Numbered from the stretch's first letter, positions 1 to 13,438 are shown. The stretch: 39,651 nt of DNA from Kiritimatiellia bacterium (GCA_050949565.1 JBMNFY010000009.1:1-39651); one strand, 5' to 3'. Notes: a model not told the origin generated them from the letters alone. A program made the numbers and translations.

Positions 1-1944
1 GTTCAGATCCTCCCAGACAAAGTCGCCGATGCTGTAGCCGGCCACGTTGATCGTGAAGGTGTACTCCGCACTGCGGTCTTCGCCGCCGTTGGCTCTGCCG
101 CCGTCATCCTGGAGATAGACCGTGACGGTGGCGATGCCGCTCATGTTCGGCGCGGGCGTATAGGTCAACGTGCCGTCGGCGGAGATGGCCGGCGGTACGG
201 AGAAGAGTGCGGCGTTGTTGTTCGTTACATGAAAGGTCAGCGTCTGCCCGCTTTCATTCGCCGGGCCTTTGCTGATGTTTGTGGCCCACGCGGGCACGGT
301 CTGTGCGCCCGCTCCCACCGTCAGATTCTGGTCAGCACCTCCCGTGAAGCCCGGCGCGTCGTTCACCGGCAGCACCGTCAGATACACCGTGGCGGTGTCC
401 GCGCGCCCGTTGAAGTTCGTGATCGTGTAGGTAAAGCTGTCGCTACCGTAGTAATCCGGCTCAGGTGTGTAGGTGTAGGAACCGTCGGCATTCAGTACAA
501 GCGTGCCGTGCGCGGGCTGGGTGTGGGCGACCACGGCGATGTCAAAGCCGTTCAGGTCGCTGTCGTTGTTCATCACTCCCGGCGCGGGACGGTCCCATCA
601 CACCTCCACCATTGAGACATTGTCATCGACCGCCGTAGGCGGCAACAGCGTGCGCACGATCGCTTCCCCCGGCACATTGTCGCTTGTGCTGAGGGTCGTG
701 TCGATGATCGTGCTTGTTCCACCCACGTAGGCCACCACACTGTTGGTCGTTACCCCCGCAATCATCGCCCGCGCCTGAAAGGTGAAGTCGACGGTACTGT
801 TGGCCGGAACATGCTCGGTCTCCGACCAGACCAGCCGCGTTCCGCTGATCGACGGATCAAGCATCGTCACCCCGTTCAACTGCGAACTGCCCGGTATGTA
901 CGCCATGTGCGGCGGCAGGGTATCGACAACACGGTCGATCGCCATATCGTTCGGCCCGCTGTTGGTGAAGCGCACGGTATAGGTCACGATCTCATTGGTA
1001 TAGGCCCGCGTGACGTTGGCCAGCTTGGCGAGTGTCGTGATATTGGTCGGCGACTGGATTGGCTGGAAAAGGCCATAGCCCGAAGTGCTCGGATGCGAAC
1101 TTTTATTATTCTGCGAGGCATAGGTCATCGGGCTGACCGGCGTGCTTTGCGCGGTCTCGACCAGCGCCCTGAACGTATAGTAGGCGGTATAGGTGATCTC
1201 GCCGTTGGACCACTGTACCACATCCGCCGGCAGTTGCAGATAGTCGGAGATCGTCTGTGTCTGACTGTTTTTATTCTTTAGCACCAGCGAGACGTCGCAA
1301 AGCTGGAAGGCCCCCGCGTTCCAGGTGCTGAAAACCGCCGGGCTGAAGTTGATCAGATCGCCCGTCTTTACGTTGCCCGCATCGCCTGTTACCTCCACCA
1401 ACACCGTGCCGCCGACCGTCGGCGGGTTCGGGCCGTAGGTCACGGTATAGACCTTGCTGGAGTTGTTTTCACCTGTCGTGGCCACAGTCAGGGAGAAGGT
1501 CTGGTTGGCGACCAGCGTACCGCCCTCTGGGTATCCTTCATACACTTTTACCGTGTGGCTCTGCGGCTGCGTGGTGACCGCCGAAGCGCCCAGATAAAAG
1601 TAGACGGTCTTGTACGCCCCCGGCGGAAGATCATCGACGTGGTACAACCCGTTGTCCCCGCCGGCCAGCGAGACGATATTGCCCGTGAAATCCTCCACTT
1701 GAACCCAGATGTTGGAGTACGGCACATCCGTGTCATTGCGAATGATGTACGAGACAAAACCGCATGAGAGCCCGTTCGGGATGTCCGTCTACAGAATCGC
1801 CCCAGAGGTCCGCGTGATCGTGATCGCCTCGGCCACCAAGGGTGCGCCGGCCAGCGCCAGCGCAAGAAACACGCACGCGCCCGCGCGGCGCAGCAAGCCG
1901 CTTCGAGAGACACGCGGATAAAAGCCGGAATCGATTGCCAACAT
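1..1944 (-). pseudogene. Large secreted/surface adhesin-like protein (signal peptide, DUF11-like domain, cadherin/Big_9-like repeats, start of SdrD-B-like domain); interrupted by in-frame TAG (1789-1791) and TGA (598-600); runs off window
   Basis: ORFs 1789..2007 and 598..1725 and the open frame 1..597 are all the same frame. ATG at 1944 has AAGAGGG upstream and a hydrophobic signal peptide. Motifs: 'VTYTVRFTNSGPN...VVDTLPPHMAYIPGS', 'PTAVDD...GVMNNDSD...HGTLVLNADGSYTYTP', 'SIGDFVWEDLN'. Confidence 0.75.
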
Positions 1945-2108
1945 ATTTCGCCCTCTTATCTGATGCTTGATATTTTTGGAGTTCGCTATTCCCTCCGTGT
2001 AGCGCAACGTCAGCAGACACCGACTTCACACTTCCACTCCTACTCCTGACGCGGCGCAAAACCGCCGCCCCGTCCGCCCCATGCACAAGGCGGTCACAAC
2101 GGGGGCAA

Positions 2109-2137
2109 ATTGTCCCCGAAAAGCCGAATCACGTCAA
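2109..2137 (-). promoter_or_regulatory. Putative sigma70 promoter of the adhesin gene
   Basis: TTGACG-17 nt-GACAAT on the minus strand, ~165 nt upstream of ATG 1944. Confidence 0.55.
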
Positions 2138-2164
2138 CCGTCTTGTGACCGGGAGGGGGACCGC

Positions 2165-2192
2165 GCAAGTGTCACTTGCCCGGCGGCGGCCA
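2165..2192. repeat. REP-like palindromic repeat, copy 1
   Basis: gcaagtgtcacttgcccggcggcggcca, identical to 3841-3868; core palindrome GCAAGTG-T-CACTTGC. Confidence 0.8.
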
Positions 2193-2330
2193 GCGTAAAC
2201 GGTGAGTTCCGGCCTACTTCCGTGGGACAGGCAATGACCGCTTTGGCGGTTTTGGGAGCGGGTGAATGACGATTGAGGTGATGACCAGTTTCACAGCACC
2301 CTAGGCGCTGTGAAGCGTGGTTTACAAGAC

Positions 2331-3605
2331 TCAACTCTTTTTAGGTTTGCGTAGGTTGTTGGCGAGAGCCGCGCGAACGGCGGCAGTATTGGGCCACTGC
2401 TGTTCCAGCGAGGCGTCGACGTCTAGTGCGATGAGGGTGGCGCGGTGGGTTCGGCGCAGGTCGCGTGCTCGGCGGACCCAAGCCCACGGCACGCCCGCCA
2501 GTACGCGCGCACAGGGGTAGCGTTCGGCCAGAAACGCTCTGGGCATAAAGATACGACTCAGTGCCAGTCGAGCGCGCCCAAACAAGCCGGCTTGGCGATA
2601 GCTGAGCGTCGTCGATTCTGCCCCACGTTCTGACCCGCGTGGCAAGTATGCGAGGGCGTGAATCGCGGCGTTACGCCAAAACGCGTCGATATACGGCACG
2701 TCTTTCGCCAGGGTAGCGGGCAGAGGCACGTCAAAGAGTTCCGCAGTGAAACGTAAAACGAACGGGATAGCCGTTCCAATTTGCCAGCGTGCGCCTGCGG
2801 CGGTGATTGCTTCGGGCGTGAGCGCATCGCCTCGCGTACGCATGAGCAGCGCGACATCCAGATAAGAACGTAGCGGAATTGCAAACAGATGGTGCAGCAT
2901 GCGGTGTACAAGGTGTGCGAGTTGGTCGGGAATTGACAAGGCGAAACAGGGAGAACCGTAAAGCCGTACTGGTTCGACATACCACCATATCGCTGCCATG
3001 TCCGCTTCTGGTGAGTCGGCCTCCAGCTTGCTGAACACGTCCCAGTGCATCTCTACGGTGTAAAGGTGCTGGGGGTGGCGGTAGCCTTGAGCGCAGGCAA
3101 AGCGGTTGCGCAGCGTGTCGGCGGTAGCGGTGTAGCCAAGTTGCAGCATCACGGCATGACTGCGGTCGCGCTGGTCGGCACGGATCAGTACATCGATATC
3201 GCTCATGCTCCGCAATGCCGGATTCGCGTACACCGACTCGGCAAGCCAAGCACCTTTCAGCATGACCAGATCCAGGCCAGCGCGTTCAAAGCCCGCCGCC
3301 AACTCGGCAAGTTGGCGATGCCGCAGTGTTGCGCGCTGTAGTTCCCGCAAGGCACGCATGCGCCACGCGCCCGGCACGCTGTCGGGCAGGGCGGACGACG
3401 TGGTGAAATGCTCGGGAAAATGGGCTGCCAGCCACGGGAAGAGAAAGGCGTCTACGCCTTGTTTGCACGCCGTACGATCGAGCAGCGGCCACAATGGCTC
3501 GTCTGTGTCGACCGACAGCGGCCGATCGTGCAGGGCGTCGCGTACGCATACGATCAGCATGCGAAGTCCAGTTAGATCTGACAGGGCGGTGGTTTCGGAA
3601 TCCAT
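2331..3605 (-). CDS. Nucleotidyltransferase family protein (NTP_transf_5-like)
   Basis: Motifs LKGAWL, Y..P..R.MSDIDVL, VEMHW; start uncertain (3605 or 3692). Confidence 0.8.
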   Translation of the reverse strand: MDSETTALSDLTGLRMLIVCVRDALHDRPLSVDTDEPLWPLLDRTACKQGVDAFLFPWLAAHFPEHFTTSSALPDSVPGAWRMRALRELQRATLRHRQLAELAAGFERAGLDLVMLKGAWLAESVYANPALRSMSDIDVLIRADQRDRSHAVMLQLGYTATADTLRNRFACAQGYRHPQHLYTVEMHWDVFSKLEADSPEADMAAIWWYVEPVRLYGSPCFALSIPDQLAHLVHRMLHHLFAIPLRSYLDVALLMRTRGDALTPEAITAAGARWQIGTAIPFVLRFTAELFDVPLPATLAKDVPYIDAFWRNAAIHALAYLPRGSERGAESTTLSYRQAGLFGRARLALSRIFMPRAFLAERYPCARVLAGVPWAWVRRARDLRRTHRATLIALDVDASLEQQWPNTAAVRAALANNLRKPKKS

Positions 3606-3840
3606 GATGTCAGTAATACCACGAGAGACGGTGCAGGGGCAAGTATCTACCGCACGTTTACTCTTGCCTTGTCCCCTCCCTTCCGTCATCATGTCCCCAT
3701 AACGGATTTCGGATGATGTTTATGCCGCATCCAATCCAGCCCAAAGGTTAACCATGAACAATAACGCCGCATCGCGTCTCTTGTCTTGCGTCTTTGCTCA
3801 GGTTCAGGTTTTCAGGATTCACTGCGAAGCGCCGGGAGGG

Positions 3841-3868
3841 GCAAGTGTCACTTGCCCGGCGGCGGCCA
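3841..3868. repeat. REP-like palindromic repeat, copy 2
   Basis: 28 bp identical to 2165-2192. Confidence 0.8.
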
Positions 3869-3933
3869 CGCCGCCACCCCGTAGAAACTCTCTGCGTCTC
3901 TGCGCCTCTGCGTTAAAAAAAGGAAACGGTGTC

Positions 3934-5079
3934 ATGTTGAAAAAGGAGTGGTTACACGGGGTTTGTTTCGGACTGATTTTTCTTTTCGCTTCACAACTCG
4001 GAGCTATTCCCCTGCAACGCATCGAAGAGCAGTCGTTCGGGAGCACGCCCGCAGGCGAAGAGGTGCAACTCTACACACTACGCAACGCACACGGCATGGT
4101 AGCGCGTGTCATAGGATACGGCGCGACGATCACCGAACTGCGCGTGCCCGACCGTGATGGAAGGTTCGCCAATGTCGTTATGGGCGCGGAGTCGCTCGAC
4201 ACATACCTCAAAGGTTTCAGTGCGGCGGCCTCAGTCATGGGACGCGTCGCCAATCGCATCGCGAACGCGCGCTTCACATTGGACGGCCGCGAGTTCCGCG
4301 TGACAGCCAATGCCGGCCAGCACCAGCTCCACGGCGGTCGCAACGGGTTTGCGCGCAAGGTGTGGCGCGGCGAGGTATTGCCCGCCATCCCGAACGCTAC
4401 CGCCGTGCGCTTCAGCCTGCGCAGTCCAGACGGCGACGAGGGGTTCCCCGGCACGCTCAATGTGACCGTCACCTACACGTTGAACGATGACAACGAGTTG
4501 CGCATCGACTATACGGCGACTACCGACAAACCCACGCCGGTCAACTTCACCAACCACGCTTACTTCAATCTTGCAGGCGAAGGGGACGTGTGGGACCACC
4601 AGGTTTGGATCGACGCCGATCGTATCACGGCAGCCGATGCCGAACTGATCCCCACCGGTGAGTACGCGCCCGTCACGGGAACTCCGCTGGATTTCAGCGC
4701 GCCGACCGCGATCGGCGCGCGGATTGAGGCGCTTACGTCAACCAAAGGGTACGACCACAACTACGTTTTGCGCAACGGTGGTCAGAGCTTCGCATGCGCG
4801 GCGTGGTGCTACGAACCGCGCAGCGGCCGTCTGATGCACGTCTACACCGACCAGCCCGGCATGCAGCTCTACACGGGAAAACGTTACTTCCGCAACGGCA
4901 AGCCAGTAGCGGCAACGCCGGATCAAAAGCACAACACCGTCTGCTTTGAGACGCAGCACTTTCCGGATGCCGTCAATCATCCGAACTTCCCGTCGGTCAT
5001 CCTGCGTCCCGGCCAGACCTTCCGTCGTGCGACATCCTACCGGTTTTCCGTGGCCAACGCGCTACCGGCGGTGCCCTGA
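3934..5079 (+). CDS. galM: Aldose 1-epimerase (galactose mutarotase) with signal peptide
   Basis: GRVANRIANA, LHGG, GFPG, NFTNHAYFNL, GYDHNY, TDQPGMQLYTG, CFETQHFPD; frame stays open upstream to ATG 3754. Confidence 0.92.
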   Translation: MLKKEWLHGVCFGLIFLFASQLGAIPLQRIEEQSFGSTPAGEEVQLYTLRNAHGMVARVIGYGATITELRVPDRDGRFANVVMGAESLDTYLKGFSAAASVMGRVANRIANARFTLDGREFRVTANAGQHQLHGGRNGFARKVWRGEVLPAIPNATAVRFSLRSPDGDEGFPGTLNVTVTYTLNDDNELRIDYTATTDKPTPVNFTNHAYFNLAGEGDVWDHQVWIDADRITAADAELIPTGEYAPVTGTPLDFSAPTAIGARIEALTSTKGYDHNYVLRNGGQSFACAAWCYEPRSGRLMHVYTDQPGMQLYTGKRYFRNGKPVAATPDQKHNTVCFETQHFPDAVNHPNFPSVILRPGQTFRRATSYRFSVANALPAVP

Positions 5080-5254
5080 TCCGTGCCGCACCCGCAAGCA
5101 AGAGGTTTTGTAAGAGCCTCGGTTAGTGACAGAGACGCGCGAAGATCATGAGTTTCTGGAGAAAAGAGGCACGGCGAGTCGGGACTGCGGGCGTCCTCGC
5201 CCGCAGCAGCGTGTCATGAAAAAGGCCGACGCATGTATCTGTTCAAGCAGGAGA

Positions 5255-5432
5255 AGAACGCAGAACGCTCAACGTCGAACACAGAACGCAGAAGTGGAGA
5301 ACATGAAACGTTCAGTGTCAGAATTGCGGAACGTTGGGAAGATGAGAGCAACGCAGAACCTCTGCGCCTCCGCACCCCTGTGAGAAAAACCGAACAATAA
5401 AACTTGGGACCAGAAACCTGAAACCCAAAGCC
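5255..5432. repeat. Direct repeat A, copy 1 (heptamer/octamer composite)
   Basis: 5255-5398 matches 6273-6416 with about 8 mismatches in 144 bp; looser tail follows. Confidence 0.9.
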
Positions 5433-5442
5433 GCCCCGTTAC

Positions 5443-6126
5443 TCACTCCTCACTTTCCTCAGCCCTCCAGGCGCGGATGTAGCGGCGGCGCACCTTGGCA
5501 ATGAACCCCTCGGCGGCGTCCGGTTTCGCCTCCGGCGCGGGTGCAGCTTTTTTCTTCTGCTTTGGCTTCGGCGCGGCGACACGCGCATGCAACTCTTTCA
5601 GGCTGTCGATTCGGAGCTCCGCGGCACAGATCGTGCCCTCGCGCATCCTCCTTAATTCCGGGAAGTCGTCGAGCGGATAGAGGAGCCCGTTGTTGAAGTG
5701 ATAGATAGTCCGGTTGACAATCGGCAGAAGCCGCCGCTCCTTGATGCCCGGACCGAACCTGAATACGCGCACCTTCACCTTCGCGGCCTCGGGATGACGG
5801 TAACGCGCCTCTTCGGGCATCGCGGCGCCTTTCGCGACGAAGAGTGCGTTCATGCCCTTTTTAAGATAGTTGCGGTTGACGCACATCTTCCACGAGATCC
5901 CGAGCGAACCGCGCACTGTCACCAGCGCATACCTTTCATTCGCCTTCGGAATCTCCTTGTAGGCGACCACCCTGACGATACACGCGAGCGGCAGCGCCGT
6001 CGGCATCGTCTCGCCCTCGCCACGCCGCAGCTTGTCGAGGTACGCAATCGCGATAACATCTTCCGGCGTCCTCTCCGGCTTCTTCGGCCACTCCGGCTTC
6101 TCAGGTCTCTCGTTTTCTTTATTCAT
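5443..6126 (-). CDS. Hypothetical protein resembling the N-terminal OB-fold of DRB0094-type RNA ligases, without a ligase domain
   Basis: 227-aa ORF under promoter copy 1; 'LACIVRVVAYKEIPKANERYALVTV..W.MCV...LKKGMNALFV...AAMP' and 'NGLLYPLDDF...EGTICAAELRI' patterns. Confidence 0.55.
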   Translation of the reverse strand: MNKENERPEKPEWPKKPERTPEDVIAIAYLDKLRRGEGETMPTALPLACIVRVVAYKEIPKANERYALVTVRGSLGISWKMCVNRNYLKKGMNALFVAKGAAMPEEARYRHPEAAKVKVRVFRFGPGIKERRLLPIVNRTIYHFNNGLLYPLDDFPELRRMREGTICAAELRIDSLKELHARVAAPKPKQKKKAAPAPEAKPDAAEGFIAKVRRRYIRAWRAEESEE

Positions 6127-6143
6127 CTATTCCACCGCCATCA

Positions 6144-6224
6144 TCCACAAGGCACTCAACAACGCACCGACACCCACGATGGCACCCATTATGCGAGGGA
6201 GAGTGAAAACCGTCAACCCGCAAA
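6144..6224 (-). promoter_or_regulatory. Repeated promoter + hairpin leader, copy 1
   Basis: TTGACG(6216-6211)-17-CATAAT(6193-6188), then 7 nt and ATCGTGGG hairpin; aligns ungapped with 10170-10250 and 10667-10748. Confidence 0.85.
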
Positions 6225-6272
6225 ACTCGCGCATCAGTTTTGTGGGCGGCGTTCACGATGCCCTCTGCGATG

Positions 6273-6455
6273 AGAACGCAGAACGCCCAACGTCGAACAC
6301 TGAACGCAGAAGTGGAGAACATGAAACGCCCAACGTCAGAATTGCGGAGCGTTGGGAAGGTGAGAGCAACGCAGAACCTCTGCGCCTCCGCACCCCTGTG
6401 AGAAAAACCGAACAATGCCTGAAACTTGGAACCAGCAAACCTGAAATCCCAAGGC
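6273..6455. repeat. Direct repeat A, copy 2
   Basis: Matches 5255-5432; lies just past the mcrC stop. Confidence 0.9.
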
Positions 6456-6467
6456 CCCCACTATTCG

Positions 6468-7943
6468 CTATTCACTTTTTTCATTCACTTGACTGACCAG
6501 CCAGCCAAGACCCTCCCGAGCCTTGGCGTCCATCTCCGTTGCAAATTCTTTAAAGTCAGAATGTCCTTGGGGAACGGGTAGCCCCAGTTCAAAAAGACAG
6601 CGTTTGCAGTCAGCATTTTCCGCTGGCTGGTGGGCGCGCGCCCCTAAGAAACACCGTGTTTTTTTGTAAATCCCGTTTTCGTCTTTAACATCGCTTTTAT
6701 CATCGCCGTCGTACGGGAAGAGCAGAGAGGCGCGATTACATTCATACCGGTACATGTAGGTGGTGACTTGATAATAATCTTCCCGCGATGCCTCTTCACC
6801 GCGTTTGTCAATGCGCTTGTACTTTGCATCAGCCACGAAATGCGCGGTTAGAACGTTTTTGCCGTCAGGTTCTTTCACCTTGATGAAGTCTGGATATATT
6901 TCCTGACCATCTTTAAAAAGCGTATCTCTTCCCTTGCGTTCTTTGTTGCACGGATGTTTTATTTCTTCGCCAATCTCACGGAACATGACATCCAGATACT
7001 CCTCCCAGAGCCACGCTCCGTCGAAGATCAGGCCGTAGACCTTGCCCTTTTCCCTGCCGTACGTCAGTTTGTCGTGCCGCAGGATACGCAGGCAGAGTTG
7101 CTGGAGACGACGCCACTCCGTGAAGTAGGGATGCGTCACGGGATGTGTCAGGTTGGCATTGATGACCCGACCGCGCTCATTGCGGTTGTAACCCAGAGTG
7201 TGAAATTCAATCTGGTTGACGGCATCCGACATCTCGGTACTGTTGCGCAGAGTGCTCCGCCCCCATGGATGCGCCTTGATATGTTCGATCGTATGACGCA
7301 CGAGTTGTGTCACGGCGTTGTCGTACCGATACTCTCGCGTGTTGTAGGCGATCTTGCCCGCGAACGGAATATTCCGCTTTAAGTGCCGCGCGACATCAAT
7401 CGCACCCTTCACGTTGGCGTCGTTATGTTTGATCCGTCTGTACTCTTTGTAGAGTCCCTGACGCATCGCCGGCATCAGGTGTGACGGAAAGAGATAGAGC
7501 AGAAAATCATAGATGTTATCGCGAAGATCTGTCCGCACTTGGAAATTAACGATGTTCAACCTAAACACCTTGTGCAGCATGTGGTGCAGAAAGAAGTCAT
7601 GAGCATCGTCTTTGGCAAAGCGCGAGGTGATGGTCAGTTGGGTGTTGTTCCGCCCGACAAACCCCATGACGTTGCCCGTGGCAAGCGACCAAGCTCCGGC
7701 TTCTTGAGGGTGCAACGAAAAGAGTCGCAATGTTTCGGCTTTGTCTTCTCCGCTGCGGTACGTGTCTAAACCGTAAGGGAACGCCAACAACGACGGATTA
7801 TCACCGCGCAGCTCCGCTATCGTTTGCACGGCGATGGGAGCCAAGTCGTCGACCGCTTGGGGAGCCAACTGCAGCGACTTGGCCGTGGTATTATCGGTTG
7901 TCACCAGATGAGTTGTGCCGTCATCAAGAGTGCGCCCCGCCAT
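6468..7943 (-). CDS. mcrC: McrC-like PD-(D/E)xK nuclease subunit of a modification-dependent restriction system
   Basis: TGNVMGFVG, RQGLYKEY, KGAIDVARH, LWEEYL, YPDF...DAKYK...DYYQ..TYM; overlaps the mcrB stop. Confidence 0.88.
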   Translation of the reverse strand: MAGRTLDDGTTHLVTTDNTTAKSLQLAPQAVDDLAPIAVQTIAELRGDNPSLLAFPYGLDTYRSGEDKAETLRLFSLHPQEAGAWSLATGNVMGFVGRNNTQLTITSRFAKDDAHDFFLHHMLHKVFRLNIVNFQVRTDLRDNIYDFLLYLFPSHLMPAMRQGLYKEYRRIKHNDANVKGAIDVARHLKRNIPFAGKIAYNTREYRYDNAVTQLVRHTIEHIKAHPWGRSTLRNSTEMSDAVNQIEFHTLGYNRNERGRVINANLTHPVTHPYFTEWRRLQQLCLRILRHDKLTYGREKGKVYGLIFDGAWLWEEYLDVMFREIGEEIKHPCNKERKGRDTLFKDGQEIYPDFIKVKEPDGKNVLTAHFVADAKYKRIDKRGEEASREDYYQVTTYMYRYECNRASLLFPYDGDDKSDVKDENGIYKKTRCFLGARAHQPAENADCKRCLFELGLPVPQGHSDFKEFATEMDAKAREGLGWLVSQVNEKSE

Positions 7944-9312
7944 ACGCCTTCCTCAATTCTCTTAGCTTCGCTTCCGCATCCGGCATCCCGCGCAGGTACT
8001 CACGCAACAACGGTTCAATGTGATACTGCCAGAGAGCGTTGAAATCTCCGTCGTACTTCTTCAATTTCAGGAAATATGCGCCGCCGATGTGATACGAGGA
8101 GTTAAGGCCGTCGGCTTCAGAAATTGCTTTGTTCAGTGCCGCCATCGTTTGCTTCACCTTGTCATCCAGCCCCATGTTCTCGGCGCTCTCTGCGGCAGTA
8201 ATCTCCTCCCAGACAAACCTTCGCCGCATTGCGAAGTCGAAACTCTCGACGCTCCGGTCGATGTCGTTCATCGTGCCGATGATGTAGACGTTCTCTGGGA
8301 CATAAAACTTCTTCTCATCATCAGACCCCGCTCGCATACTGACATACTGAGTCAACACTTTACCGGCGACACCCCGGTACCCCGGGTCAATAGAGAAAAA
8401 CAACTCGCCGAAAATCTTCGAAATCTCACCTCGGTTAATCTCATCAATGACGAAAACGAACTTCTCGCTGGTCTCGTCATATTTTCCATTATCCTTGTAC
8501 TTACACTCTTTACGAGCCGCCTCGCAAAACTTCTTGAAAGTACCATCGGTAAGCTCAAACCCGATATTCCCGTTCACGTCTGGTTGCTTCGGACGCAACC
8601 CCTCCACGAAATCGGTATAGTCATAGGAAGGGTGGAACTGGACGAAAGCGAACTGTTTGTCGAACTTCTCCTTTTCACTCTCCTCAAAGTTGTTTTCGTC
8701 CTTCGGCTCCCAATCGTCGCCAAAGATCAGCTTCTGCGCAAGTTGTCTGGCCAGATAAGTCTTCCCTGTCCCGGGCGCACCGGTCAGGATGAGATTGTAA
8801 TTGTTCCCTAACAGAGTGACCAACGCCTTCATACGGGCATTTTCTTCGTTCATTTTTACAGCCTCCTCCACAACGGTTTTCAGTTTCGACGCTATTTTCT
8901 GATCTTTCGGATTCTTTGACGGATGTAGTTCGTATATTGAAGGTATTCTTCTCGCACCTCCGAAAGCGGCCCCTTCAAAATCGAGTCCAAGCCCGGCAAG
9001 AGCGTCTTGGCCTATCATGCCTTTTAGCTTGCGCGCATAAGCATGATCCGGAACTCCATCCTTCTCCGGGGTCACCGCCTTGACATCAGAGTCAACAATA
9101 CCTGCGAAGTAGAGTTCCTTGCTCTTGTTTTCACCGCGCGCGATGAGAACGATATCCCCTCGCTTTACCGTATGATGAAAATCGCGGCCTCGCGCCGCAT
9201 GTGTCTCACCAGGCCCATAACCCATGTAAACGCAGTGATTCTTGCGAATGGCATCTATCCAAGCCCCGCTCCCTTCGTTTCTTACATTTGGCGAAACGAC
9301 CCAAAACCGCAT
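7924..9312 (-). CDS. mcrB: McrB-like AAA+ GTPase with N-terminal putative EVE/PUA-like DNA-reader domain
   Basis: Walker A GAPGTGKT, VQFHPSYDYTDFVEG, Walker B VIDEINRG, McrB signature GTMNDIDRS, AMRRRF; alternative start 9321. Confidence 0.92.
   Translation of the reverse strand: MRFWVVSPNVRNEGSGAWIDAIRKNHCVYMGYGPGETHAARGRDFHHTVKRGDIVLIARGENKSKELYFAGIVDSDVKAVTPEKDGVPDHAYARKLKGMIGQDALAGLGLDFEGAAFGGARRIPSIYELHPSKNPKDQKIASKLKTVVEEAVKMNEENARMKALVTLLGNNYNLILTGAPGTGKTYLARQLAQKLIFGDDWEPKDENNFEESEKEKFDKQFAFVQFHPSYDYTDFVEGLRPKQPDVNGNIGFELTDGTFKKFCEAARKECKYKDNGKYDETSEKFVFVIDEINRGEISKIFGELFFSIDPGYRGVAGKVLTQYVSMRAGSDDEKKFYVPENVYIIGTMNDIDRSVESFDFAMRRRFVWEEITAAESAENMGLDDKVKQTMAALNKAISEADGLNSSYHIGGAYFLKLKKYDGDFNALWQYHIEPLLREYLRGMPDAEAKLRELRKAYGGAHS
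8929..9296. repeat. 368-bp near-identical duplication, copy in mcrB 5' end
   Basis: Matches 9731-10098 (offset 802) with 2 mismatches seen (9153/9955, 9209/10011). Confidence 0.95.
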
Positions 9313-9338
9313 CTCAGGCATCCCTTCTCATATCGTCA

Positions 9339-9548
9339 TCAACCATCATTAGCATCCTTTCCTGCACCGTCTTGCGACGATTGTTCGTCGTTCCGCTTTT
9401 TTGTCGGTGTCTGAGACAGCCAAGCATACATAGGCCCAGAAAAACCGCATCCCCAGCAAACACTGTCGGGATAATCGTAGGGCTCATACCCGTTGGCCCG
9501 TATCCAATCGGAACACTGTTGGCTTCCGCATGGCTTTGTGCTCGTCAT
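9339..9548 (-). CDS. Small Cys4 protein (69 aa), possible zinc-binding
   Basis: GGAGG RBS then ATG; MTSTKPCGSQQC...VCWGC; co-oriented and immediately upstream of mcrB. Confidence 0.55.
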   Translation of the reverse strand: MTSTKPCGSQQCSDWIRANGYEPYDYPDSVCWGCGFSGPMYAWLSQTPTKKRNDEQSSQDGAGKDANDG

Positions 9549-9574
9549 CGCTGTCACGCCTCCCTGAACACCCC

Positions 9575-9619
9575 AAACCAGAAACAATGGATCTGACGGG
9601 AGTTTTCCGCCAGATCCAT
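9575..9619 (-). terminator. Strong hairpin (terminator/attenuator-like) after the stand-alone reader gene
   Basis: ATGGATCTGGCGG-AAAACTC-CCGTCAGATCCAT followed by TGTTTCTGGTTT. Confidence 0.6.
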
Positions 9620-9637
9620 CAAGTGTGTCGTTTTTAA

Positions 9638-10114
9638 CTACTGAGCCCCATCTTCTTTTGCAGTCTTCCCTAAAGCGGTCTTCAGTTTCGTGGCTATTTC
9701 TTGATCCTTCGGGTTCTTTGAAGGACGCAATTCGTATATTGAAGGTATTCTTCTCGCACCTCCGAAAGCGGCCCCTTCAAAATCGAGTCCAAGCCCGGCA
9801 AGAGCGTCTTGGCCTATCATGCCTTTTAGCTTGCGCGCATAAGCATGATCCGGAACTCCATCCTTCTCCGGGGTCACCGCCTTGACATCAGAGTCAACAA
9901 TACCTGCGAAGTAGAGTTCCTTGCTCTTGTTTTCACCGCGCGCGATGAGAACGACATCCCCTCGCTTTACCGTATGATGAAAATCGCGGCCTCGCGCCGC
10001 ATGTGTCTCATCAGGCCCATAACCCATGTAAACGCAGTGATTCTTGCGAATGGCATCTATCCAAGCCCCGCTCCCTTCGTTTCTTACATTTGGCGAAATC
10101 ACCCAGAATCTCAT
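9638..10114 (-). CDS. Stand-alone copy of the McrB N-terminal domain (158 aa)
   Basis: AAGGAG RBS, own stop codon; protein nearly identical to residues 1-~150 of McrB. Confidence 0.85.
   Translation of the reverse strand: MRFWVISPNVRNEGSGAWIDAIRKNHCVYMGYGPDETHAARGRDFHHTVKRGDVVLIARGENKSKELYFAGIVDSDVKAVTPEKDGVPDHAYARKLKGMIGQDALAGLGLDFEGAAFGGARRIPSIYELRPSKNPKDQEIATKLKTALGKTAKEDGAQ
9731..10098. repeat. 368-bp near-identical duplication, copy in stand-alone gene
   Basis: See 8929-9296. Confidence 0.95.
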
Positions 10115-10169
10115 TCCAGTCTCCTTTCTCATGTTGCACAGTTTGCTATGACAGGTCTCCTGTCATCAC

Positions 10170-10250
10170 TCCACAGGGCCACCGGCAACACACCGATGCC
10201 CACGATGGTGCTCATTATGCGGGGACGGATGAAACTCGTCAACCCGCAAA
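10170..10250 (-). promoter_or_regulatory. Repeated promoter + hairpin leader, copy 2
   Basis: TTGACG(10242-10237)-17-CATAAT(10219-10214); hairpin GGGCATCGGT-GTGTT-GCCGGTGGCCC; extra hairpin ATGACAGG-AGA-CCTGTCAT downstream. Confidence 0.85.
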
Positions 10251-10284
10251 GCGCAAAACGTTAACGCCGTAACCGAGTCTCGCG

Positions 10285-10611
10285 TCAGCAGTAGCGGTTG
10301 CTAATTTCTGCGATACCTGCGGTGCTGACTTCGTAAACGACGATCCTACTGCCGTCTTCGAACACCATCAAACGACCGTTCGCGTGTTTGAAGTTTCCGA
10401 CGCGGCTGCGATAGAGCCGTTCAATTTCATTGTCGGTCTCGGCGTTCACAATCACATACCGGTCGTCATCCCCAAAAACGAGGAAGTTCTTCCCGAACCC
10501 GCACAGGTCGCCGTCTCCATAGCGACTGGCGTAAATCCGGTTCGCCTCCCGGCTGTTCTCGTCATACACGGTATAAGCGTTACCGTCAAAAGCCACATCC
10601 GATATAGTCAT
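10285..10611 (-). CDS. Hypothetical protein (108 aa, three weak beta-rich repeats)
   Basis: GAGGGAG RBS, downstream of promoter copy 3; repeats YTVYDENSREANRIY / YVIVNAETDNEIERLY / IVVYEVSTAGIAEISNRY. Confidence 0.75.
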   Translation of the reverse strand: MTISDVAFDGNAYTVYDENSREANRIYASRYGDGDLCGFGKNFLVFGDDDRYVIVNAETDNEIERLYRSRVGNFKHANGRLMVFEDGSRIVVYEVSTAGIAEISNRYC

Positions 10612-10666
10612 GGTCGTCGCTCTCCCTCTCGTTTCGTTCGCCTTTCACTGGCATTTCTTCTTCTGA

Positions 10667-10748
10667 TCCTCAGGGTGACCGGAAAAACCCCGGCTCCCAT
10701 GATCGTCGTCATTATGCGGAGACAGATGAAACCTGTCAATCCTGCAAA
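10667..10748 (-). promoter_or_regulatory. Repeated promoter + hairpin leader, copy 3
   Basis: TTGACA(10739-10734)-17-CATAAT(10716-10711); hairpin GGGAGCCGGG-GTTTT-TCCGGTCACCC. Confidence 0.85.
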
Positions 10749-10766
10749 AAACGCGCGCAGACGTAT

Positions 10767-10815
10767 GGGGCACGGGTTTTCCAACCCGTGGCACGGACAG
10801 GAATGTCCGTGCTCC
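10767..10815. repeat. REP-like doublet
   Basis: cacgggtt-ttcc-aacccgtg followed by gcacggaca-ggaa-tgtccgtgc. Confidence 0.7.
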
Positions 10816-10844
10816 TTTCCCTGCCCATAACTTGGGTTTTTTCG

Positions 10845-10960
10845 CTCCTAACTCCTAAATCCTAAATCCCAAATCCGCGCGTAGCGCGGTTACGCGGTGC
10901 TCGGATTTAGGAGTTTTTTCACTTCTGCGTTCTGCGTTGGACGTTCGGCGTTCGGCGTTC
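10845..10960. repeat. Heptamer tandem arrays
   Basis: (aa[c/a]tcct)n with inverted copy at 10903-10915; 10921-10960 is the reverse complement of the gaacgca heptamer block of repeat A. Confidence 0.75.
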
Positions 10961-10987
10961 ACAAAACGGCGGCGTGAAACGCCGCCC

Positions 10988-11077
10988 GGACGAGCAGACG
11001 CTCGTCCCTCCCAGTTCCTACTTGAACGTTCGGCGTTCCAATCGATCCCGATCCCGATAGCGATACCGATTTGGATG
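10988..11077. repeat. Direct repeat B, copy 1
   Basis: ggacgagcagacgctcgtcc palindrome + gttcctac.tgaacgtt.ggcgtt + cgatNN hexamers; matches 13311-13396. Confidence 0.8.
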
Positions 11078-11108
11078 AAGCCTGTTTCCCAAAACCTTCT
11101 TTTGCGGC

Positions 11109-11714
11109 TTATTGGGGGGTTGCCCCTGTGCCTGACCCTTTCACGCCTTTAGGAGGGGCTTCGCGAACTGCAGGATATTTACTCTTCATTTCCGCCTCTT
11201 TGCGATCAAGGGCTGTTTCTGATATCCACTGTTTCTCTCCATCGATCTCAATGAACTCGGAACGGTTGACTAGCACCACCCTGGCAGACGTATATCGATA
11301 TTTCTCGACCATTCGAAAGCCGCCTTGGCCGGGATGTCGCCACCGGACAACGATCTCCGCTCCTGCATCATCCGGAAGTACATCAACTCCCTCAAAGATG
11401 GGTGTAACACCTTTGACATTGGTGTTCGCCTCACGGAGAAAGCGAACGTTGCCTTTTTCATCACATTCTGCAAAATCAATAAGATCCCCCTCGCTTCCTG
11501 ATCGACAATACTTGAGAACATACAGATCTTTTAGCCCTGATATCTTTACAGTGGATTCTCCTGAGAACTTGTAAACCCCCTCCCACGTGCGATGTGTTCT
11601 GGAAGGAAGCGCCCTGCGCTCAAGAACATTCGTCGCTCCATGGGCCGACAAAACGCCTGAAAGAAGGGATGCAAACATAGATATAAGAGTACTCAACAGC
11701 TTGATCGTTTTCAT
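11109..11714 (-). CDS. Hypothetical secreted protein (201 aa)
   Basis: Signal-peptide-like MKTIKLLSTLISMFASLLSGVLSAHG; visibly lower GC than the core genes. Confidence 0.75.
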   Translation of the reverse strand: MKTIKLLSTLISMFASLLSGVLSAHGATNVLERRALPSRTHRTWEGVYKFSGESTVKISGLKDLYVLKYCRSGSEGDLIDFAECDEKGNVRFLREANTNVKGVTPIFEGVDVLPDDAGAEIVVRWRHPGQGGFRMVEKYRYTSARVVLVNRSEFIEIDGEKQWISETALDRKEAEMKSKYPAVREAPPKGVKGSGTGATPQ

Positions 11715-11746
11715 GAATCGTTTCAAATCACCTGTCCCCTAGTTGT

Positions 11747-13150
11747 CTATTTCGTGTTTTCAGGGCTACCCTCGATGCCCCACGACTCTGGCGCGACCTT
11801 TCCCTGTTTGGCGTTTTCGACCTCGCGGAGCAAGGCATGAATGTCGATTATATGGTTTTCATCATCGTAGGGCTGGCCGTCATGCCGGCGAAAGAGGTCG
11901 AGCAATTCCAAGGCCTTTTTCCGCGTATAGTCGTCGCGACTCAGGAGACCCTCGCGCAGGATGGGGTAACCGATCAGCCAGCCCATATCCTCGGCGAAGA
12001 TTTTAGCGTAGACGATACGAACCCAGAGCGAGTAGCGGAAATGCTTCAGTATTTCAGGCGCATCTTTACGTGGCTGTGACTCCGCGACCGACGAGCATTT
12101 AGCGGTTTGTAGGTACCTGTTCCGGATTTGGCAGGCGACCAGTTCGTTCGTGGCCGCAGACTCGCGGAGCAGGGCCCGGATGTCGACCCGTCTGCCCGAG
12201 CCGTCGAAAGGCTTGCCGTCGAACGCCCTGAACCCGTCGAGCAGGGTCATGGCCTGATCATAGTGATCGCCATCATAACTTCTCCACAGCAGGCCTTCGC
12301 GCAGGACCGGGTAGCCGCCGGGGTCTCCCTTTTCAACACAATCCTTGGCGATCGACAGTCTCGCGGACAGGTCGCATTCGGGGTCAAACATCTCTTCCCG
12401 CCGGAAGCGTTCGGCAGCGTCCTTGTCGTAACGCTCCAGAACTTTTCTACAACGAATTTTTATGGACCAGTCGTTGTTAGTCTGATAACAGCAGATCAAA
12501 GCGTCAGTCAACTCGGGGAACCGATGATGATCGATATCAAGCCTTGCCATGGCGCAAAGGATTGAGTCTAACTCATCCCCTTCAGCCGTATCCCGGACCG
12601 CACTCTTCAGCTTGCCGGTCCGCGCCGACATGTCGCGCACAAACATGCGGATGTCCGGGGCCGCTTTGGACTGCTGCAGGACCTTGGCGCAAAGGTGCCG
12701 GACAACCCAATCCTCGCTCTGCTTGTAGCACCGGACGATCTCGTTCGTCAATTCGGGAAAGGCGTGGCCCGACTCGATAAGAACGGTAAGCGTGACATAT
12801 ACGACCGCACTTGCCTCACTGAATCTTACAAGACCTTGCCGTCCCCGCATGTCTTTCGGCACGCGCTTTGTCATGAAGCTTTCAAGCGCTTTCGGCGAGC
12901 GCAGACTTTCAACGAGGTTGGTGTAGTCGGCTTGCTTGCCTGTCACGATTTTGTACGAGGTTGCGCCATAGTCGTAACGGTACTCATGCAATTTGTTCTC
13001 GAGAAGCGCCGATTGCCGCTCCGCTGCTTCGCGCTCACTTTGTTTGAGGGATACGGGCTGAACATTCTCGCCAGCCCTGCAATTGCATACGGAAGCAACG
13101 ACAGAGGCCGTCAATAAGACAGGAATCAAGAATCTTTCCGTAATTGTCAT
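11747..13150 (-). CDS. Hypothetical secreted helical-repeat (HEAT-like) protein (467 aa)
   Basis: Signal-like N-terminus from ATG 13150; two pairs of internal repeats. Confidence 0.75.
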   Translation of the reverse strand: MTITERFLIPVLLTASVVASVCNCRAGENVQPVSLKQSEREAAERQSALLENKLHEYRYDYGATSYKIVTGKQADYTNLVESLRSPKALESFMTKRVPKDMRGRQGLVRFSEASAVVYVTLTVLIESGHAFPELTNEIVRCYKQSEDWVVRHLCAKVLQQSKAAPDIRMFVRDMSARTGKLKSAVRDTAEGDELDSILCAMARLDIDHHRFPELTDALICCYQTNNDWSIKIRCRKVLERYDKDAAERFRREEMFDPECDLSARLSIAKDCVEKGDPGGYPVLREGLLWRSYDGDHYDQAMTLLDGFRAFDGKPFDGSGRRVDIRALLRESAATNELVACQIRNRYLQTAKCSSVAESQPRKDAPEILKHFRYSLWVRIVYAKIFAEDMGWLIGYPILREGLLSRDDYTRKKALELLDLFRRHDGQPYDDENHIIDIHALLREVENAKQGKVAPESWGIEGSPENTK

Positions 13151-13269
13151 GGCGTGAACCCTTTTGGCTTTTAAATACCCGTCCCTTAGTTGTCTCTCGC
13201 CATCACACATCTCCTTTTCGTCTGCATTCTAGCATCTTGTGTCGTCAACAGCTACTTGAATGTTAGTCG

Positions 13270-13438
13270 CCAACGTCAGACTTGCGAAGCGTTGGAAAGG
13301 TGAGAGCAACGGACGAGCAGACGCTCGTCCCGGTTCCTACGTGAACGTTGGGCGTTTTGATCGATACCGATAGCGATACCGACAGCGATTTTGATGCGTT
13401 GCGTGTCCACAATGTCCACGACGTCCACAATGTCCACA
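13270..13438. repeat. Composite repeat: partial repeat A (13270-13311), repeat B copy 2 (13311-13396), nonamer array gtccacaat (13405-13438)
   Basis: Direct sequence comparison with 6329-6371 and 10988-11077. Confidence 0.8.

Follow-up and report, generated by a model that had tools for sequence, protein, structure and literature searches.

Type IV restriction systems of the EVE-McrB/McrC kind join an N-terminal reader domain of the EVE superfamily to the McrB AAA+ GTPase, with McrC (DUF2357/PD-(D/E)xK) encoded next to it, as set out in the sections of PMC7641849 and PMC11090510 drawn on here, and the first of these sources gives EVE-McrB as the most common EVE fusion (PMC7641849). A similar arrangement is found in a stretch of DNA of 39,651 nucleotides (nt) from a Kiritimatiellia bacterium (GCA_050949565.1 JBMNFY010000009.1:1-39651), referred to below as the window, which makes up the whole of contig C9 in an assembly of 21 contigs that is 92% complete (G000). 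In contrast to the described systems, the McrBC-like operon of the window also carries, upstream of mcrB, a second, near-identical and free-standing reader and a small gene for a protein with a CxxxxC...CxxC motif (the Cys4 gene). The running text of PMC11090510 and PMC7641849, in the sections drawn on here, describes neither a paralogous free copy upstream of EVE-McrB nor a small Cys4 gene (their architecture tables may bear on the point), and a literature search found nothing closer to a free reader combined with EVE-McrB.

Other described systems share single features with this locus. The mcrB gene of Escherichia coli K-12 yields a second product, McrB-S, which is reported in the part of PMC2993543 drawn on here to modulate McrBC activity. 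McrB-S resembles the free reader proposed here in being a partial McrB product that stands beside the full-length protein; unlike it, McrB-S retains the GTPase but not the N-terminal reader and is a product of mcrB itself, whereas the product in the window would be the reader alone, made from a duplicated gene. Stand-alone EVE or ASCH proteins beside Type I restriction-modification and SWI2/SNF2-nuclease systems, as presented in the available sections of PMC7641849, are also similar, because a free EVE-type reader adjoins a restriction system. In those cases the free EVE protein is the sole reader and is thought to give specificity, whereas the effector in the window already has the same reader.

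About 480 nt of the mcrB 5' end are present twice in the window, 802 nt apart (Table 1), and these are the only two copies in the genome. The free copy and the mcrB copy differ at 23 of 450 aligned coding nt, with 5 differences in codons 1-12, 2 in codons 13-127 (a 345-nt core) and 16 in codons 128-150. The probability of finding two or fewer differences in the core under a uniform spread is 8e-12, and both of those present are nonsynonymous (D35G and V55I). By the Nei-Gojobori method, the edges of the two copies have synonymous divergence (dS) of 0.93 and 1.12 and nonsynonymous divergence (dN) of 0.036 and 0.14, and their dS is about equal to that of the Cys4 genes of the window and a related locus, L006 (1.06). 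The edges of the copies are saturated at synonymous sites (dS about 1).

A near-identical repeat of this kind might be produced by the assembler and be present in no single molecule, since the identical core exceeds the usual k-mer length and the 21-contig assembly has redundant contigs (C16 and C12 repeat window positions 1-6474 at 99.2-99.95% identity). However, independent metagenome contigs and contigs from sequencing runs pass without a break through the unique junctions (free tail, hairpin, Cys4 gene and mcrB 5' edge). One metagenome contig (L003) is 100% identical to the window over 1041 nt and another (L005) is 93.8% identical over 1097 nt, and each runs from the free gene across the hairpin and the Cys4 gene into the start of the second copy. 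A contig from DNA run X2 covers 9300-9760, and its remaining 33 letters, read as a joint back 802 nt, reach ~9267; this contig therefore bridges the mcrB 5' edge, the Cys4 gene, the hairpin and the free tail. The X2 contig of the core (9731-10098) has a depth of 17.9 compared with 8.2 and 8.8 for its neighbors, which is suggestive of two copies and is not a copy number. In addition, at least half of the words sampled from 9300-10300 are present in 20 of the 24 listed runs; these digester, bioreactor and sludge metagenomes come from 19 studies, include 6 RNA libraries, and contain one run that is possibly the source sample. The same architecture is also present in an isolate genome from another phylum (Brachyspira, below). 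Based on these results, the duplication is real and an assembly artefact is scarcely credible, which confirms, at the locus and in independent contigs, the original prediction from the sequence of the window that mcrB is preceded by a paralogous free N-terminal domain.

The paralogues from the window, L003, L005 and a further strain, L004, were aligned. Variants at the 5' and 3' edges tracked position, with one set in all free copies and the other in all mcrB copies, and 21 differences in a ~50-nt loop region (residues ~32-48) tracked strain. In the two strains where the loops of both paralogues are readable (the window and L005), the loop alleles are identical between the paralogues. The loop alleles of the strains differ from each other at a dS of 0.93 and a dN of 0.32 (dN/dS 0.35), and they are therefore old alleles swapped by recombination rather than products of fast local evolution. 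This loop (GYGPDETHAARGRDFHHTVKRGD at residues ~32-52, window positions 9959-10021 and 9157-9219) is the hypervariable part among otherwise similar alleles, other versions of which read GWGPEDTDWRRGYYFHHKVKRGD, GYEPTAKGAGRCFNNKVSNND and GYKPEDKGGQLFYNCGCGD. The near-identical cores between diverged edges indicate that gene conversion operates between the paralogues, and a replacement of the variable loop of the reader ends up in both copies, with the pair homogenized and not diversified. Recombination among strains goes further, as shown by P0167, in which the L005 loop is joined to the window tail. A diversity-generating retroelement was rejected because the two core differences, one A>G and the other G>A, run opposite ways and are not confined to the adenines of one copy. 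No search for a reverse transcriptase was made; the genes of the module are those for the reader, Cys4, McrB and McrC, and the neighboring open reading frames (ORFs) of 108, 205 and 227 amino acids (aa) have no Pfam match.

The repeats may also matter as a substrate for recombination. Deletion between them could act as a one-way switch that drops the attenuator and the Cys4 gene and places mcrB under the strong promoter and ribosome-binding site, or the free copy could serve as a conversion donor after the McrB reader is lost or changed. Conversion tracts are evident, and L004 has exactly the predicted recombinant form, a single fused gene whose 5' edge is of the free type and whose 3' edge is of the mcrB type, with neither a free copy nor a Cys4 gene; P0001, on a 913-nt contig, has the reciprocal combination of an mcrB-type start and a free-type tail. 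However, both L004 and P0001 can result from a wrong traversal of the repeat graph by the assembler. L004 would reflect either recombination between the repeats that deleted the intervening DNA or collapse of the repeat during assembly, and P0001 was not counted as a triplication, as it may be merely a cyclic path of the repeat graph. In addition, with one and the same allele in both copies there is no stored diversity, and no recombinase gene was recognized in the module. We consider a role as recombination substrate quite improbable. The idea in the original prediction that the free domain is a donor for specificity exchange is not supported if it means that a different specificity is kept in reserve: conversion is evident, but the loop allele is the same in both copies.

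The isolate Brachyspira intermedia DD9 contains a second example of this architecture (L021), so it is not unique to the window genome; uniqueness, together with a free domain that is unexpressed or without phenotype, is what the original prediction had named as counting against it. In DD9, a 146-aa free copy ends 15 nt before a 622-aa mcrB, which is followed by mcrC (PF10117, E = 8e-55), and there is neither a Cys4 gene nor a hairpin. The two copies differ at 12 of 429 nt, with one difference in a 354-nt core (P = 5e-8) and 6 in the first 50 nt, and both edges have diverged. The Brachyspira arrangement is an independent occurrence. The free copy has the stronger Shine-Dalgarno sequence in both lineages (in DD9, AAGGAG compared with a bare AGG for mcrB), and both free copies end at the domain boundary.

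The elements of the module are all on the minus strand, in the order promoter-like site, free reader gene, hairpin, Cys4 gene, mcrB and mcrC (Table 1), each where it had been placed from the sequence alone. The promoter-like match TTGACG-17-CATAAT is located inside a repeat of ~85 nt (10164-10250), and no second promoter-like match was found between 10214 and the mcrB start. The free gene had been noted to have its own ribosome-binding site and stop, and it does: AAGGAG lies 7 nt 5' of the ATG of an intact 158-aa ORF. An in-frame ATG further upstream, at 10132, would give an alternative 164-aa product, and the Shine-Dalgarno sequence of mcrB is weaker (AAGGGA). The hairpin has a folding energy of -24.6 kcal/mol (z = -2.93), and none of 200 shuffled sequences folded equally well; its sequence is identical in L005, and L006 has no counterpart of the stretch. 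A search of 4500-12000 against Rfam gave no matches. The G+C content is 49-56% over 6-13 kb, compared with ~58-64% in most flanking 1-kb bins.

Table 1. Features of the McrBC-like module, in window coordinates.
Feature	Position	Strand	Description
Promoter-like site, sigma-70-like	10242..10214	-	TTGACG-17-CATAAT, 10/12 matches; consensus match only
Duplicated segment, upstream copy	9656..10134	-	Shine-Dalgarno region and codons 1 to ~150
Free-standing reader-domain gene	9638..10114	-	158 aa, ATG at 10114; predicted PUA-like EVE/YTH fold
Terminator-like hairpin	9621..9585	-	14-15 bp stem, 7-nt loop, then UUGUUUCUGGUUU
Cys4 gene	9339..9548	-	69 aa, CGSQQC...CWGC (CxxxxC...CxxC)
Duplicated segment, mcrB copy	8854..9332	-	802-nt offset from upstream copy
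mcrB	7924..9312 (or start 9321)	-	Reader domain (codons 1 to ~150) and AAA+ GTPase
mcrC	6468..7943	-	PF10117, E = 2.2e-54; PD...DAK nuclease motif

The identification of this operon as McrBC-like was supported by the matches of its McrB to AAA_5 (E = 3.1e-15) and to the McrB family NF008457 of NCBIfam (E = 6.4e-36, below the equivalog cut-off) and by that of its McrC to PF10117. The McrB translation contains GAPGTGKT, DEINR and MNDID, which correspond to Walker A, Walker B and the NxxD signature of McrB-type GTPases, the last as named in the available part of PMC11090510. The adjacent mcrC, which encodes a DUF2357/McrBC protein with a PD-(D/E)xK nuclease, overlaps mcrB by 20 nt. By gene content, the system is classified as McrBC-like Type IV restriction, with a predicted GTP-dependent cleavage of modified DNA.

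RNA libraries provide some information on expression of the module. The contigs from libraries X12 and X16 (832 nt, from 10098 to 9300 with the remaining 33 letters on to ~9267) cover the free gene and cross the hairpin, and a contig from library X20 (9465-9812) covers part of the free gene and also extends across the hairpin; X12 and X16 belong to one campaign and X20 to a second. If these contigs derive from RNA, the hairpin is not a complete stop. The X12/X16 contig is unbroken at the 3' end of the core, where the contig of DNA run X2 branches. An unbranched contig fits a larger amount of free-gene RNA than of mcrB RNA, but this is a weak hint because contigs give no levels and DNA may contaminate RNA libraries.

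The reader domain had been predicted to be EVE/PUA-like, and this was borne out by structural comparison but not by sequence-family membership. The 158-aa protein has no match in Pfam-A (E <= 0.1), NCBIfam or PADLOC, and thus none to the Pfam EVE family (PF01878); the Brachyspira copy likewise matches no Pfam-A family at E <= 0.1. Among Protein Data Bank chains there was no sequence-level match (best E 0.76-0.93, to unrelated proteins). A HMMER scan of 1.84 billion representatives found 159 proteins with the domain at E <= 1e-3, and an alignment of 72 sequences was built from the two window copies, P0001-P0004 and 66 more representatives from the listed 150. Partner domains in the aligned set are AAA (44), AAA_5 (41), ResIII (4), GmrSD_N (2) and NOV_C (1), which shows the reader domain to be a module that recurs at the N-terminus of restriction-type enzymes. 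The aromatic residues W4, Y/W32, F45 and Y127 are conserved in this family alignment.

An AlphaFold2 model based on the 72-sequence alignment had a predicted local distance difference test score (pLDDT) of 91.8 and a predicted template modeling score of 0.88, compared with a pLDDT of only 69.2 for an earlier six-sequence model; confidence was lowest at the hypervariable loop (block mean pLDDT 73). The top-ranked structures in a Foldseek search with this model were the EVE-HNH enzyme VcaM4I, PH1033, MJECL36 and 2eve (E = 3e-4 to 7e-3), followed by THYN1, YTH domains and the N-terminal domain of T. gammatolerans McrB. VIA-align gave Z scores of 10.5 and 10.0 for the archaeal EVE-like proteins MJECL36 (2p5d) and PH1033 (1wmm), 9.7 for VcaM4I (6yex) and 8-9 for YTH domains, among them the T. 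gammatolerans McrB N-terminal domain (6p0f) at 8.1, over 121-134 residues. The model thus predicts a PUA-like superfamily fold of the EVE/YTH type, although identity to these structures is just 8-15% and there is no sequence-level link to them. A precomputed label, PF28529.1, is attached to the McrB relatives P0005-P0010.

The Cys4 protein has no Pfam, NCBIfam or PADLOC family; a word-based search returned only a 99%-identical protein, and the Atlas gave no hit of at least 0.9. At L006, which is 61% identical, a dnaB-like fragment is followed by Cys4, mcrB and mcrC, and there is no free copy; the Cys4 core is 62% identical between the window and L006, with a dN/dS of 0.16. Cys4 is a real gene and encodes an ancestral, conserved small partner of this McrB subfamily, and the presence of Cys4-mcrB-mcrC alone in L006 indicates that the free copy was added upstream of an existing operon. 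The gene is absent from 32 more distant domain-carrying loci. A complex prediction for the free domain with the Cys4 protein (score 0.00, mark 0.32) says nothing either way. The closest McrB proteins (P0005-P0010) are few and 51-92% identical in the domain, and the domain was found in none of 60 relatives of the window genome.

As a tentative explanation of these features, we propose that the cell makes a surplus of the free reader, which has the specificity of McrB and competes with it for modified sites. The separate gene for McrB's own modified-DNA reader domain goes back to an old duplication of part of mcrB, at its 5' end. This gene would hold the only recognizable promoter and the best ribosome-binding site of the operon, and the hairpin would attenuate transcription into Cys4-mcrB-mcrC, leaving the free reader in excess over McrB, a plausible effect that the original prediction had also assigned to the hairpin. 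With the same specificity as McrB, a monomeric free reader would therefore occupy the same modified sites and damp McrBC, without recruiting the GTPase ring or McrC. The occupied sites would raise the cleavage threshold and buffer the cell against self-damage or over-restriction, and the free reader would be a functional mirror image of E. coli McrB-S, which sets a precedent for modulation by a partial product. The presence of the duplicated form in runs from 19 studies was counted as persistence in favor of this proposal. In the host assembly (92% complete), the C5-cytosine methyltransferase family PF00145 has no match, and the N6/N4 methyltransferase families PF01555 and PF02384 have 8 and 10 matches above cut-off, respectively; a risk of self-targeting would therefore exist only if the reader recognizes N6- or N4-methylated bases.

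Several observations weigh against a competitor role, the first of which is that the arrangement is rare. Among 32 genome loci found with a domain-pattern search, two copies of the domain lie within the fetched flanks only in L021, and of 38 Brachyspiraceae genomes 6 have the domain, which is present twice only in DD9. In the order of L022, 9 of 401 genomes matched and none has the arrangement (one double hit was on different contigs); in Bacteroidales (the order of L023), 17 of 401 genomes matched P0057, each once and none as a pair. The hairpin U-tract is also interrupted. The identity of the cores and the loop allele common to both copies need no selection, since gene conversion alone accounts for them, and the low dN/dS of the edges may have built up in full-length mcrB alleles before they were joined by recombination. 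Selection for the Cys4 gene between the repeats could, in the window lineage, alone block loss of the duplication. Finally, the free copy may be dispensable, since L004 is without it and P0166, a free-type copy of 113 aa from a public NCBI record, is unlike every other copy beyond residue 99 (KLKGM, continued by RLLQNPLVTWASRP), perhaps because the free gene is disrupted or rearranged in it.

The same searches yielded further matches and nulls. Of the 17 Bacteroidales matches, 12 cover only the tail of P0057 (query residues 94-173), and P0057 was rejected as an example of a free copy because its tail matches ORFs of ~750 aa elsewhere. In the 401-genome sample of the phylum of L009, only the center genome matched, and searches of plasmids, phages and viral contigs gave no match for the pair. 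Short proteins with only the N-terminal domain occur on long contigs (P0052, 148 aa, 29 kb; P0067, 146 aa, 11 kb; P0012, 147 aa, 5.7 kb), and P0024 and P0164 are a pair that is 90.7% identical over 140 aa; all of these may be further free copies. The arrangement is a real variant of EVE-type McrBC that recurs but is rare, and its conversion signature is clear.

The rarity of the arrangement is also expected if the free copy is a neutral relic, left behind by a tandem duplication, or by the replacement of an allele or cassette in which an older mcrB was cut short. The core would then be passively repaired by conversion from the functional mcrB, and the copy would persist in the window lineage because its deletion would also remove Cys4. 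The L004 form and the divergence of P0166 fit this explanation, as does the free tail KLKTALGKTAKEDGAQ, which resembles the linker between the domain and the AAA+ region in another allele, P0002. However, the edges are synonymous-saturated yet keep a dN/dS of 0.04-0.13, and the start, Shine-Dalgarno sequence and stop of the free gene are intact in all three strains. The pooled edges contain 8 nonsynonymous and 13 synonymous changes (P = 0.008 at omega 0.55 for one copy drifting neutrally), which argues against neutral drift of one copy only if the divergence arose in place. Moreover, Brachyspira has nothing useful between its repeats, yet its tandem copy lasted to ~12% divergence at the 5' edge, and the stronger Shine-Dalgarno sequence and the stop at the domain boundary are features of the free copy in both lineages. 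We regard a neutral relic as somewhat unlikely.

Alternatively, the free reader could be a decoy that absorbs phage inhibitors aimed at the McrB reader domain, and it would therefore have to remain identical to that domain. The concerted evolution of the paralogues, loop allele included, and the signals for excess expression are in line with a decoy, and alleles differ most in the loop (residues 32-52), as expected of a contested surface. The same facts fit competition with McrB, however; the loop dN/dS between strains is 0.35 and not above 1, and no inhibitor of an EVE-type McrB reader was met in the literature, in a search that was not aimed at such inhibitors. A decoy function is, in our judgment, improbable.

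The surroundings of the module vary among strains. Contigs C16:1-6472 (L070) and C12:1-6341 (L071) of the host assembly begin just past the mcrC stop and repeat window positions 1-6474 at 99.95% and 99.2% identity, respectively; they are probably overlapping contigs or strain haplotypes, and the branch point at ~6474 points to variation of the McrBC island between the co-assembled strains. The neighbors 3' of mcrC in L004 differ from those in the window, the shared module being limited to ~6370-10250. In L004 (1-148) and L005 (1-185), a homologue of window 13306-13396 directly adjoins the promoter repeat, so that these strains seem to lack the 108-, 205- and 487-aa genes (10285-13210).

The promoter repeat of ~85 nt (77% identical) occurs at 6139-6224, 10164-10250 and 10667-10748, and contains TTGAC(G/A)-17-CATAAT and a conserved leader of ~50 nt. 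Its three copies precede the 227-aa ORF, the free reader gene and the 108-aa ORF, respectively, all on the minus strand; the repeat has no Rfam match and may be a shared regulatory module. This repeat and the 227-aa gene were rejected as multi-copy elements of the genome, as the extra copies sit in C16 and C12, which merely repeat the window. GAACGC-rich repeats of ~145-190 nt (90-94% identical) at 5255-5436 and 6273-6459 lie on either side of the 227-aa gene; together with an inverted partial copy at 10857-10963, they also flank the McrBC module. The other ORFs of the low-G+C island, at 5443-6126 (227 aa), 10285-10611 (108 aa), 11109-11726 (205 aa) and 11747-13210 (487 aa), have no Pfam family, and the first three have no PADLOC match either.

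McrBC-type enzymes are dangerous to their host, since a newly acquired methyltransferase can turn the chromosome into a target. To our knowledge, tuning of these enzymes is known only in E. coli, through McrB-S. The findings in the window and in Brachyspira raise the prospect, still a doubtful one, that some Type IV enzymes carry a specificity-matched antidote or decoy reader, made in excess from a leading position by means of an attenuator or a stronger ribosome-binding site and locked to the enzyme by gene conversion, with repeats that allow one-step deletion to an unbuffered, highly expressed McrBC (the L004 form). If so, conversion would lock the free reader to the specificity of the enzyme, and a newly acquired reader allele would automatically be copied into the buffer. 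A competing free reader that co-evolves by gene conversion would be a simple and general way to set a cleavage threshold, and the pair would be a clean natural example of concerted evolution matching a regulator to the specificity of its target. The small free protein is also a potential ready-made reagent for binding modified DNA.

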